Assembly (NCBI GenBank): GCA_013425405.1
Contig: JACCLF010000036.1
Span: 1 to 57,978 of the forward strand
DNA: 57,978 nt
Reading direction: 5' to 3'
Origin: Candidatus Micrarchaeota archaeon
GTDB lineage: Archaea > Micrarchaeota > Micrarchaeia > Burarchaeales > Fermentimicrarchaeaceae
Made by a program: the position numbers and the translations under genes
In this document: positions 28,439 to 55,342 of the stretch, in pieces
How positions within the stretch are numbered: the first letter of the stretch is position 1
Layout: every line of letters begins with the position of its first letter
The notes under the pieces: generated by a model
What the model saw: the letters and a program-made list of their open reading frames with translations, nothing else
Told to the model about the DNA's origin: nothing
Database searches by the model: none

Positions 28439-28615
28439 TTTTTTGTGGCATACCCACTTAAGAGCTTCCTGCTTCATTGACGCTGCTATTGCAGCATCTC
28501 AATCCAGTCCTCATGGCTTTCATTGCAGGCGTTACTTCCCGTCTGCCCGACGGTAGTTTATACAGATGTTTCCTTATGCTGAGCATCTATCCCGCCGCTT
28601 AATTGCTTCCTATCA

Positions 28616-28624
28616 TTTTTTTTT
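28616..28624 (+). terminator. oligo-T (T9) candidate archaeal terminator downstream of rpl12
   Basis: Run of nine T, 178 nt after the rpl12 stop. Confidence 0.35.
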
Positions 28625-28729
28625 AAGAAAGGGTTGGGAGATGCCAGCGAGTTTCCTTAGCCGGCAGCTCCCATAAGGGGCAATCAGAACCCCAACGGTC
28701 CAGCCATTCCTCCTTTCCACCGGTCATAC

Positions 28730-28855
28730 CTAGCTAACATCAAGCACCAGCCTATCCCCTACCCTCTGTATCACGGTGGAAACATTATTCATCTTCAGCC
28801 TCTCGGCAAGAGCCTCTACTTCATTCAGAGTCAGTTTCGCAATGTCCATTTTCAT
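28730..28855 (-). CDS. small protein Y1 (41 aa), paralog of 54488..54661
   Basis: MKMDIAKLTLNEVEALAERLKMNNVSTVIQRVGDRLVLDVS. ATG is 6 nt after a GAGGTG SD. The first 5 codons lie inside the 91-bp identical block. Confidence 0.55.
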   Translation of the reverse strand: MKMDIAKLTLNEVEALAERLKMNNVSTVIQRVGDRLVLDVS

Positions 28856-28932
28856 CTCAATCACCTCTTTACTGCTAAGAGGTGGTTTTCCAGGGTATTT
28901 AAATAGGCGGAAGGGGGGTAGCTTTCCAGTGA
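28842..28932 (-). repeat. 91-bp block 100% identical to 54648..54738
   Basis: Base-by-base comparison found no mismatch. Identity stops abruptly on both sides. Confidence 0.95.
28862..28905 (-). promoter_or_regulatory. promoter of Y1: TATA box plus 8-bp/7-nt-spacer palindrome covering the SD
   Basis: Minus strand reads TATTTAAATA (28896-28905), then CACCTCTT-AGCAGTA-AAGAGGTG (28862-28884), then ATTGAG-ATG. CTGGAAA direct repeats lie at 28887-28893 and 28923-28929. Confidence 0.6.
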
Positions 28933-29057
28933 TCCTAATCCGCATCCTCCAGGAGCTCTTCAGCCCTGCGACCTCTCAAAACACTTACTGCCCCTCTCTT
29001 AGAAAAGACGCCAGGGCTACTTGTTCCCTTTAACTTACAGTGAAAAAGAAAAAGCAC

Positions 29058-29420
29058 TCAGGCCAGACTTCTTTTCTTAAGTTCTTCCTGAAGTTCTGTG
29101 ACTTTCTTTGCCCTTTCAGCATCAATTCTTTCCAAATTCTTCCTTGCATTATCCAGCTCCTCGTGCAAGATTGGGCTGCTGGGTTTTATGTTCTTCTCCT
29201 TAAGAACCGGCAGCATTCCATCCGCCATCTCTTTTGGCTTCAGCTCCTTGCTTCTGTCAAAGAGCCCCAGTTTGGTGACAATATCCATGACAGCATTTCT
29301 CTCGTTCCTTTCTCTTATTATATCGCCGAATACATCTTTACTTCCTTCTTTCCCTCCTGACGTTTTTTTATCGGCATCTCTTTCCTCTCGAGTTTTGAAT
29401 ATATCTTTAATGCTAGACAT
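29058..29420 (-). CDS. small charged helical protein X1 (120 aa), paralog of 54754..55044
   Basis: Aligns with X2 over ~90 aa (MLPVLKEKNIKPSSPILHEELD..ERIDAERAKKVTELQEELKKRSL). Family not recognised. Confidence 0.6.
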   Translation of the reverse strand: MSSIKDIFKTREERDADKKTSGGKEGSKDVFGDIIRERNERNAVMDIVTKLGLFDRSKELKPKEMADGMLPVLKEKNIKPSSPILHEELDNARKNLERIDAERAKKVTELQEELKKRSLA

Positions 29421-29458
29421 AAAATCACGTATAATTTATGCACAATATAATTTATAAA
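29421..29458 (-). promoter_or_regulatory. promoter of X1 (TTTATAAA, near-leaderless)
   Basis: TTTATAAA at 29451-29458 lies 30 nt upstream of the ATG. The 19 nt including the ATG (29418-29436) are identical to 55042-55060. Confidence 0.55.
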
Positions 29459-38646: not shown

Positions 38647-38759
38647 CGGCTTCTTTGGCGTAAGTTAGCAGAAGCGAGCGGGAAATCCCACATGCTTTAG
38701 GAGTGGGAGCATGTCACATTAATATAAGACATCATCCAATAGCATATAGCGGTGAGCTT

Positions 38760-54487: not shown

Positions 54488-54661
54488 CTATATGTTCTCA
54501 ATTCCCAGCTCAACCCTGGCAGGCCTTATTGAAGTGGATTTGCATACAAGCAGCAGAGTCTCCCCGTTCCTCTTAACAAAGGAAGTTATGTTCCTCCTGT
54601 CCAGGAACGATATGAGCTGATCAATTTCCTCATCCTTGAGCTTGCTTATGTCCATTTTCAT
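54488..54661 (-). CDS. small protein Y2 (57 aa), paralog of 28730..28855
   Basis: MKMDISKLKDEEIDQLISFLDRRNITSFVKRNGETLLLVCK... The same SD/ATG context as Y1, inside the identical block. Confidence 0.55.
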   Translation of the reverse strand: MKMDISKLKDEEIDQLISFLDRRNITSFVKRNGETLLLVCKSTSIRPARVELGIENI

Positions 54662-54738
54662 CTCAATCACCTCTTTACTGCTAAGAGGTGGTTTTCCAGG
54701 GTATTTAAATAGGCGGAAGGGGGGTAGCTTTCCAGTGA
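54648..54738 (-). repeat. 91-bp block 100% identical to 28842..28932
   Basis: See 28842..28932. The offset between copies is 25806 nt, in the same orientation. Confidence 0.95.
54668..54711 (-). promoter_or_regulatory. promoter of Y2: TATA box plus palindrome (copy of 28862..28905)
   Basis: TATTTAAATA at 54702-54711; palindrome at 54668-54690. Confidence 0.6.
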
Positions 54739-54753
54739 AACTAGAAACAGCCT

Positions 54754-55044
54754 CTACTCAAGCTTTCTCTTCCTAAGTTCTTCCTGCAGTTCTTTAATCT
54801 TCGTGGCTTTCTGAGGATCTATTCTCTCCACAGTACCTATCATTCCTTCAAGTTGCTCGTGCAATACTTGACTGTCTGGCCTAATGTTGTTCTCCTTAAG
54901 GATTGGCATAAGCCTTTGTATCTCCGCTTTAACGTCTAGTGGTTTTTCCTTATTTGTAAGCTCCATACCCCTAACTATATCGAATACCTTATCTCTTTCC
55001 TTTCCTGCGCCTATTATTTCATCCAAAATACCGGTTTTACCCAT
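54754..55044 (-). CDS. small charged helical protein X2 (96 aa), paralog of 29058..29420
   Basis: LMPILKENNIRPDSQVLHEQLE..ERIDPQKATKIKELQEELRKRKLE. Confidence 0.6.
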   Translation of the reverse strand: MGKTGILDEIIGAGKERDKVFDIVRGMELTNKEKPLDVKAEIQRLMPILKENNIRPDSQVLHEQLEGMIGTVERIDPQKATKIKELQEELRKRKLE

Positions 55045-55082
55045 AAAATCACGTATAATTCATGTATCATATTCTTTATAAA
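55045..55082 (-). promoter_or_regulatory. promoter of X2 (TTTATAAA, near-leaderless)
   Basis: TTTATAAA at 55075-55082, with the same 30-nt spacing to the ATG as at X1. Confidence 0.55.
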
Positions 55083-55102: not shown

Positions 55103-55342
55103 ATGAAAGATGCTTCCTCCGCCGAGATTGTCAGGAGAGCAGTTGAAATGGCTAGAGAGAGCATCCCCTGGCATCATCACTATATGCCTCCGGGCTGTCA
55201 CTTCTCAAGGGAAAGCAAAATGCACCAGCTGATTCTTGAGAATGAAATAACCCAAGAAATATGGGTTGCAAAAACTGATGAAAAACCACTTGATGAATTG
55301 AAGAAACTTGAGGATTTGTTCTTCAGAAAGAAATTCCCCTAG
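55103..55342 (+). CDS. hypothetical protein (79 aa)
   Basis: Track ORF, divergent from X2. Confidence 0.35.
   Translation: MKDASSAEIVRRAVEMARESIPWHHHYMPPGCHFSRESKMHQLILENEITQEIWVAKTDEKPLDELKKLEDLFFRKKFP

Follow-up and report, generated by a model that had tools for sequence, protein, structure and literature searches.

The X and Y genes at two loci

The contig JACCLF010000036.1 of a Candidatus Micrarchaeota archaeon (assembly GCA_013425405.1), analysed over a stretch of 57,978 nucleotides (nt; positions 1 to 57,978) that is here called the window, carries two loci, A and B, each with a pair of small-protein genes on the minus strand. At locus A, X_A (29058-29420, minus strand, 120 amino acids (aa)) encodes a small protein predicted to fold into four helices behind a charged N-terminal extension, and Y_A (28730-28855, minus strand, 41 aa) encodes a mini-protein with a predicted beta-alpha-beta-beta fold. 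Locus B carries X_B (54754-55044, minus strand, 96 aa) and Y_B (54488-54661, minus strand, 57 aa), the latter sharing the Y_A fold and having in addition a conserved tail (...RVELGIENI) that is modelled with low confidence. With moderate confidence, we propose that X and Y are separately transcribed, lineage-restricted genes, that the Y promoter belongs to a module common to a further small-protein gene named W89, a HerA-like gene and TnpB-encoding insertion sequences (ISs), that X is a facultative neighbour of this promoter and that gene conversion acts between the two loci.

The open reading frame (ORF) listing agrees with the coordinates, lengths and strand of the four genes in the original prediction, which was made from the DNA letters alone, and the homology claimed there between the two X copies (43% identity over 94 aa, E-value 1e-23) and between the two Y copies (39% identity over 38 aa, E-value 1e-8) is borne out. 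The Y start is the ATG of MKMDI, located 5 nt past GAGGTGA and kept in 31 homologues; an in-frame GTG 3 codons upstream, resulting in products of 44 or 60 aa, was considered and rejected in favour of this conserved start. Compared with orthologues from other contigs by the Nei-Gojobori method, the ratio of nonsynonymous to synonymous substitution rates (dN/dS) is 0.16 to 0.25 for X, 0.08 to 0.27 for Y_A and 0.04 to 0.22 for Y_B, with a proportion of synonymous differences (pS) of 0.4 to 0.8, that is 40 to 80%, in these comparisons. The substitution patterns indicate that all four genes are real and held by purifying selection. All four proteins are near-neutral in charge.

The separate TATA boxes, the near-leaderless X and the Shine-Dalgarno (SD)-led Y that had been proposed are likewise present in the sequence. 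The TATA box TTTATAAA lies 30 nt before the X start codon at both loci, leaving X nearly without a leader, and Y is preceded by its own TATA box TTTAAATA and a strong SD sequence at both loci. The X_A promoter and short leader (29421-29458, minus strand) consist of TTTATAAA at 29451-29458 followed by a conserved ATAAATTATACGTGATTTT before the ATG, and in the X_B promoter and leader (55045-55082, minus strand) the palindromic TTTATAAA is found at 55075-55082, where it is common to X_B and a divergent 79-aa ORF. X is followed by a T-rich stretch, and its stop codon and the start codon of Y are 202 nt apart at locus A and 92 nt apart at locus B.

A feature overlooked in the original prediction is a 91-nt promoter-leader block in front of each Y gene. 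The two copies (28842-28932 and 54648-54738, both minus strand) are 100% identical, whereas the flanking coding DNA is only about 55 to 60% identical. Copy A comprises a box with the sequence TCACTGGAAAGCTACCCCCCTTCC, the TATA box TTTAAATA at 28896-28903, an inverted repeat, the SD sequence and the first 14 nt of Y_A; in copy B, the TATA box TTTAAATA lies at 54702-54709 and the inverted repeat at 54668-54691. We attribute the perfect identity of this block to gene conversion between the A and B loci, for which a close relative provides direct evidence at the sequence level. The B locus of this relative (L049; loci from other genomes and metagenomes are designated by L numbers) is about 97% identical to the window, yet it contains a tract of about 245 nt that matches locus A of the window at about 99% identity and is unlike the window's locus B. 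This tract extends from the 3' end of X to the start of Y and thereby includes the promoter and the 125-nt spacer. Within six genomes, the A and B leaders are 100, 97, 89, 84, 80 and 73% identical to each other, and the two leaders of one genome often carry common lineage-specific variants. Such conversion would homogenise the promoter-leader region of A and B.

The promoter box and the position of X

The box has the form TCACTGGAAAGYTACCCC(CC)TTCC and lies 5 to 6 nt upstream of a perfect TATA box, starting 22 to 24 nt before it at the Y_A, Y_B, W89, HerA-like and tnpB genes. It is unchanged in 16 Y loci, while the synonymous sites in the adjacent coding DNA are 40 to 80% changed. A scan of 185,579 species, each represented by a single genome, with the pattern TTCACTNGAAAGYTANCC-N4-14-TTTAWAWA resulted in 29 matches, compared with about 1 to 2 expected by chance according to our estimate, all of them in four Micrarchaeota metagenome-assembled genomes (MAGs), namely Candidatus Fermentimicrarchaeum limneticum Sv326 (complete, 1.18 Mb), Sv174, DRTY-6 bin 19 (JAVZHX) and MFD04408. 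A scan of viral contigs gave no box match. Outside Y, the box and TATA box are found at W89 in four genomes, at a HerA-like gene of 501 aa in JAVZHX, at about 12 tnpB genes and at multi-copy omega-RNA units, and Sv326 alone has about 13 box-type promoters. In JAVZHX, the box occurs at host genes only. The hsp20 gene of the window has no box. The same motif is thus found at a fixed distance from the TATA box of several unlinked genes and is conserved beyond neutral expectation, as the promoters of a regulon would be. In the literature on Fermentimicrarchaeum and on Micrarchaeota with TnpB, we found no description of the X and Y genes or of the box motif.

W89 (L003:3585-3854, L008, L022, and L027) is a conserved protein of 89 aa (MPIEEEIVHWWKDEKG...) without a known family, whose gene is leaderless. 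After Y_A and Y_B, W89 is a third small-protein gene of the host with the box promoter, and it is not found in the window.

The Y profile search yields 40 clusters, every one from Micrarchaeota MAGs or metagenomes, which fall into a 41-aa A type and a 57- to 58-aa B type. In nearly every locus, Y_A has nadC on one side and the convergent rpl12 on the other. Y_B is flanked by hsp20 and a Yip1-like gene and follows hsp20 in most B loci; the position of copy B beside hsp20, already pointed out in the original prediction, is therefore a neighbourhood kept in other genomes. The window Y_A is 85% identical to the Sv326 Y_A, and the restriction of the box matches to the four MAGs indicates that the window comes from a Fermentimicrarchaeum-like relative of these organisms. 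Since both types co-exist in Sv326, JAVZHX and several metagenome bins, the split between them is older than the divergence of these genomes. Judged by its synteny and sequence conservation, Y is the conserved core of the two loci, represented by two old paralogues at fixed chromosomal positions.

X is found far less widely. Its homologues were gathered by exhaustive HMMER searches and exact-protein look-ups; the X profile, searched against 1.84 billion representative proteins, matches only 6 clusters at 50% identity, and a word-index search gives 12 clusters at 90% identity. The comparison set comprises 20 Y loci and 11 X loci, all distinct, and X lies upstream of Y in 8 of the Y loci, with Y_A in six (the window, L001, L044, L050, L051, and L052) and with Y_B in two near-identical relatives (the window and L048/L049). 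No X was detected beside the two Y genes of Sv326 or in nine further metagenomic Y loci. The presence of X differs between close relatives with almost the same Y_A (L001 versus L035; L051 versus L012), it is broken by a frameshift in L042 and in L044 to L047, and it is located upstream of the unrelated W89 in L003 and of a non-Y region in L004.

The neighbourhood in the window itself points in the same direction. A gene for a membrane protein of 405 aa separates X from Y_A in L044, which is closely related to the window locus A, and the 125-nt spacer between X_A and Y_A in the window (28933-29057, minus strand) is a relic of this gene, consisting of its 5' and 3' ends. The adjacency of X_A and Y_A in the window is therefore secondary. 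At locus B of other genomes, hsp20 is followed directly by the Y_B promoter (L030, L036, and L037), or the divergent 79-aa gene lies beside Y_B (L038), which argues for X_B being an insertion at this locus. X is a facultative neighbour, and an obligate or toxin-antitoxin-like cassette of X and Y is not supported.

The two-gene module of the original prediction holds in part. X and Y are real neighbours with their own promoters, and the pair recurs outside the window, Y being directly downstream of X in 8 of the 11 distinct X loci; seen from Y, however, 12 of the 20 loci have no X. The idea that X and Y are a functional two-protein module, either partners or a regulatory pair and possibly toxin-antitoxin-like, that is kept in two copies can draw on this recurrence, on the order nadC-X-Y_A-rpl12 being preserved where the X proteins are only 43 to 60% identical and on the pair being found at locus A as well as at locus B both in the window and in L048/L049. 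The Y loci without X, including those of Sv326, the variable presence of X beside near-identical Y_A genes, the frameshifted X copies, the X genes before W89 and the non-Y region, and the secondary adjacency at the window A locus make such a module unlikely in our view. The similarity to type II toxin-antitoxin systems consists of two adjacent small genes on the same strand, with one patchy partner and more than one copy per genome. Unlike these systems, X and Y have separate promoters with a terminator-like T-run between them and no operon overlap, they do not strictly co-occur, they match no toxin, antitoxin or defence model and no DNA-binding fold, and Y is found at fixed syntenic positions rather than on mobile islands. 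The toxin-antitoxin-like label was therefore dropped.

What X does accompany is the box. A box-type promoter in the same orientation follows the X stop in 10 of the 11 X loci, the box mostly starting 10 to 20 nt past the stop. At the window A locus, the canonical box is found 125 nt past the X stop, beyond a box-like relic, and the boxes of L044 and L004 are degenerate. The genes behind these promoters are Y_A, Y_B, W89, the membrane protein or unknown genes, and the position of X hence follows the promoter rather than Y. This pattern, irrespective of the gene being driven, would also be expected if X were encoded in cis to regulate the box-type promoter that directly follows it. Such a function appears improbable, as no DNA-binding fold or family and no Foldseek match was found for X, its net charge is only about 0 to +3, no X was detected for Sv326 with its roughly 13 box promoters, X is located at just 1 to 2 of the box promoters in the genomes that carry it, and hitch-hiking on promoter homology accounts for its position without any function.

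Insertion sequences carrying the box

The TnpB proteins behind the box were confirmed to have the OrfB_IS605, Cas12f1-like TNB and HTH_OrfB_IS605 domains. The box-led non-coding unit is the omega-RNA/right-end scaffold, as indicated by blastn matches to the 3' end of each tnpB gene and by compensatory stem changes. In full ISs and in mini-elements without tnpB, the box lies 15 to 90 nt inside the left end, which begins with AGAAGCGAGCG after a TTAGC target and has a hairpin of the form CCCCACAC...GGTGGG. In the TnpB elements of Sv326, Sv174 and MFD04408, box and TATA box together make up the promoter inside the left end. The left end and hairpin are found upstream of the box in L006, L009, L010, L016, L018, L020, L021, L024, L029, and L031, and are absent upstream of the box at all Y, W89 and HerA-like loci. 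An alternative assignment, with the TCAC of the box as the IS target (transposon-associated motif, TAM) and TGGAAAG as the left terminus, was rejected because the true left end with AGAAGCGAGCG and the hairpin lies 15 to 90 nt further upstream. We read the box as a host-type promoter element, presumably a factor-binding site, that is carried by ISs and is not a transposon end, because no IS left end is found at the Y, W89 and HerA-like genes and because JAVZHX has the box at host genes only.

The opposite possibility is that the Y loci are domesticated IS200/IS605 fragments, in which a left-end promoter now drives a cargo or replacement gene. The TnpB-omega-RNA elements of the IS200/IS605 family (Karvelis et al. 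2021, PMC8612924) and the 3' non-coding RNAs of archaeal IS1341 elements (Gomes-Filho et al. 2015, PMC4615843) have been described, and small accessory repressors within IS605 elements are known in the form of Arc (Moon et al., bioRxiv 2026, 10.64898/2026.09.24.754181). The Y box and TATA box are the same as those of the promoter inside the TnpB IS left ends, and the window contains two relics of the family, at 28445-28623 and 38670-38717. However, the left-end terminus and the hairpin are both missing upstream of the box at the two Y loci, which also have no tnpB and no right end or omega-RNA of ancestral origin; the omega-RNA-like piece close to Y_A is a lineage-specific insertion. Y_A and Y_B are moreover single-copy genes at fixed syntenic positions, Y does not have the ribbon-helix-helix (RHH) fold, and in JAVZHX the strict pattern finds the box at host genes only. 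We give domestication of an IS only a small chance of being correct.

No tnpB gene is found in the window. The first relic is an insertion of about 179 nt (28445-28623, minus strand) that separates the 3' element of Y_A from the stop codon of rpl12 (28438); the other Y_A loci in the alignment of this position do not have it. Two-thirds of the insertion, on its 3' side (28557-28445), are homologous to the omega-RNA/right-end scaffold of TnpB and show compensatory stem changes. The insertion ends with GGGTATGCCAC 6 nt from the rpl12 stop, and its would-be guide is thus complementary in sense to the terminal part of rpl12, that is, antisense to it. The view that this omega-RNA-like piece is an ancestral part of a Y cassette was rejected on the basis of a clean empty site in six other Y_A loci. 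The second relic is a 48-nt miniature IS200/605 element (38670-38717, plus strand; AGAAGCGAGCGGGAAATCCCACATGCTTTAGGAGTGGGAGCATGTCAC) after GTTAGC, which combines the start of the left end with one hairpin and the terminus of the right end and belongs to the same family as the Sv326 TnpB ISs.

In the tnpB-less mini-elements of Sv326 and Sv174 (L018:5815-6101, L005, L009, L013, and L025), the left-end box promoter is joined straight to the omega-RNA scaffold, which shows covarying stems and two alternative 3' modules. From this arrangement, the mini-elements appear to be stand-alone, promoter-driven omega-RNA genes. An omega-RNA-bearing mini-element is also found in L044 (3096-3270), where it is inserted after GTTAGC exactly at the Y_A stop, lengthening Y_A to 84 aa; the product carries the Joint Genome Institute name "RNA-binding protein YhbY", which is probably spurious.

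In the reading that we favour, the Y genes would be part of a very small regulon read by a putative box-recognising factor, and the ISs may have captured the same promoter, the box then driving both tnpB and the omega-RNA. The inverted repeat in the Y leader would act as an operator-like element or block the translation of read-through RNA. The X gene, which has a near-leaderless promoter to itself, would have been gained and lost just upstream of box promoters, possibly moving between box sites by hitch-hiking on recombination between homologous promoters.

Several points weigh against this reading. The regulon interpretation draws on sequence conservation and archaeal promoter geometry, and the box-binding factor is only putative. 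The direction of the capture, from host to IS or from IS to host, is inferred from a single MAG without box-driven tnpB under the strict pattern. The lack of X in the complete genome Sv326 refers to the loci collected and to the exhaustive search of 1.84 billion representative proteins. Seen from X, the association is strong, with Y after 8 and a box-type promoter after 10 of the 11 X loci, which would also be compatible with X being functionally tied to Y or to the promoter.

Predicted structures, the leader repeat and possible roles

The original prediction could assign neither protein to a family, and the searches gave no family for either. Y has no family match in Pfam, NCBIfam, PADLOC, PHROGs or a PDB sequence search. 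The AlphaFold2 model of Y, based on the family alignment, folds into a beta(2-4)-alpha(10-22)-beta(26-32)-beta(35-41) structure with a predicted local distance difference test (pLDDT) score of about 90 for residues 1 to 40, and the additional Y_B tail is of low confidence. The best Foldseek matches are generic EHEE mini-proteins and ACT-like half-domains (TM-score of about 0.57 over 43 residues), none of them significant (E-values of 0.03 to 0.2, 9 to 12% identity). The topology is the one seen in EHEE mini-proteins and in ACT/ferredoxin-like half domains such as the N-terminal regulatory domain of Thermotoga maritima DAH7PS (PDB IDs 1vr6 and 4grs), but at these scores it represents a generic small fold from which no function can be transferred. 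An Arc/CopG-like RHH fold, with which the sequence pattern had seemed compatible, was rejected in view of the beta-alpha-beta-beta model. The sole RHH-like match of Y in the PDB sequence search is 2k1o (E-value 0.29), which we take to have the RHH fold.

For X, no match was found in Pfam, NCBIfam, PADLOC or PHROGs. The AlphaFold2 model from the family alignment consists of four helices (pLDDT 83, predicted TM-score (pTM) 0.69), and its best Foldseek E-values are 5 against the PDB and 0.9 against viral models, neither being significant. A PDB profile match to designer pentatricopeptide repeat (PPR) proteins with an E-value of 3e-11 was rejected as a repeat-summation artefact, the score being about 11 bits summed over nine identical target repeats, with an E-value of at least 4 for each stretch; X has no Pfam PPR match and no Foldseek match. 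The X promoter and leader pattern TTTATAAA-N13-14-ATAAATTATACGTGATTTTATG is kept in 11 of 11 distinct X loci despite the saturated synonymous sites in X, which may indicate that a second regulatory element is conserved around the start of X.

The most likely role of Y would be that of a small protein- or ligand-binding regulatory subunit, co-expressed with W89 and the IS genes. By analogy, the nearest functional counterpart may be the RHH protein Arc, which represses the promoters of IS605-family transposons and is reported to have relatives beside many cellular genes (Moon et al., bioRxiv 2026, 10.64898/2026.09.24.754181). Both are very small proteins tied to a promoter that drives tnpB. Unlike Arc, which has a beta-alpha-alpha structure, Y is predicted to be beta-alpha-beta-beta, is encoded outside any IS and is near-neutral, and the sole link between the two is the shared promoter sequence. 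One could go further and imagine a Micrarchaeota-specific circuit in which the mini-proteins Y_A, Y_B and W89 modulate the activity of TnpB/IS605 elements or its consequences, as Arc analogues with a new fold, and in which X is an accessory regulator travelling with the promoter; we regard this as speculative and very unlikely.

The inverted repeat of the Y leader (copy A at 28862-28885, minus strand) is a 9-bp repeat of the form CCACCTCTT-N7-AAGAGGTG, with the 3' arm being the Y_A SD sequence, and it spans the predicted transcription start. As RNA, CCACCUCUU-N7-AAGAGGUG would form a stem of 8 to 9 bp (-11.1 kcal/mol, z-score -3.15) occluding the SD sequence (GAGGTG). Across 13 distinct leaders, 87.7% of the positions are paired, compared with 45 to 68% in shifted controls, and no pair is changed on both sides; the only changes are from C to U, keeping G.U pairs, and the 3' arm is in any case held constant by its role as SD sequence. 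The tnpB genes under the same promoter have their ATG at the 27th nt past the TATA box, and the conserved 5' end of the omega-RNA lies at nt 22 to 23, a spacing in agreement with the usual archaeal distance from TATA box to transcription start. Since this spacing places the start 22 to 27 nt after the TATA box, the predicted Y start falls in the loop of the repeat, and the 5' arm would consequently lie outside Y's own mRNA. The repeat is therefore more likely, as far as this predicted start site holds, to be a DNA-level operator at the start site or a translation block on read-through RNA. An SD-sequestering RNA switch controlling Y translation, for example an RNA thermometer, would suit the stable stem, its pairing across the leaders and the location of Y_B after hsp20 in most B loci, but with the 5' arm predicted outside the Y mRNA, no double-sided covariation, and the same element at Y_A, which adjoins rpl12 and not hsp20, it is very improbable.

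Start-site operators next to hsp20 are known from archaeal stress regulons, such as those of Phr in Pyrococcus and HSR1 in Archaeoglobus. The present loci are similar in that a small gene beside hsp20 has a palindrome at its start site and that the promoter motif is common to a few unlinked genes. They differ in that the sequence is not known to resemble the published Phr or HSR1 sites, the hsp20 gene has no box and Y_A is near no chaperone gene.

The genomes of DPANN archaea are tiny, and a conserved pair of orphan mini-proteins in two copies is therefore probably important. The toxin-antitoxin-like label is replaced here by testable statements, namely that a lineage-specific promoter module is common to a host set of three to four genes and to TnpB insertion sequences, that gene conversion restricted to the promoter occurs between diverged paralogues and that the facultative gene X has a position tracking the promoter and not the partner gene. 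If the shared promoter means shared regulation, it would offer a handle on the archaeal control of RNA-guided TnpB elements, and the TnpB and omega-RNA copies, including the promoter-driven mini-elements without tnpB, may be of interest to researchers of RNA-guided nucleases.

The region 3' of Y_A (28606-28729, putatively on the minus strand) contains a conserved non-coding element with a 13-bp hairpin (GGGAGCUGCCGGC...GCUGGCAnCUCCC) followed by a U-run. About 115 nt straight after Y_A are almost invariant in 7 loci. They include a start codon as well as an SD-like GGAGG, but the reading frames and lengths differ between loci, and the presence of a third small ORF was therefore rejected. The element has no Rfam match. 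It is probably the 3' untranslated region and terminator of Y_A. More generally, Rfam gave no meaningful match at either X-Y locus, a hit to HIV_FE with an E-value of 0.77 being disregarded.

The 79-aa ORF (55103-55342, plus strand; ...IPWHHHYMPPGCHF...) is divergent from X_B and uses the same palindromic TATA box. No family was found for it. Its counterparts in L048/L049 and L038 are 100% and 68% identical, respectively, the one in L038 being divergent to Y_B without X, and the ORF is probably a real gene.

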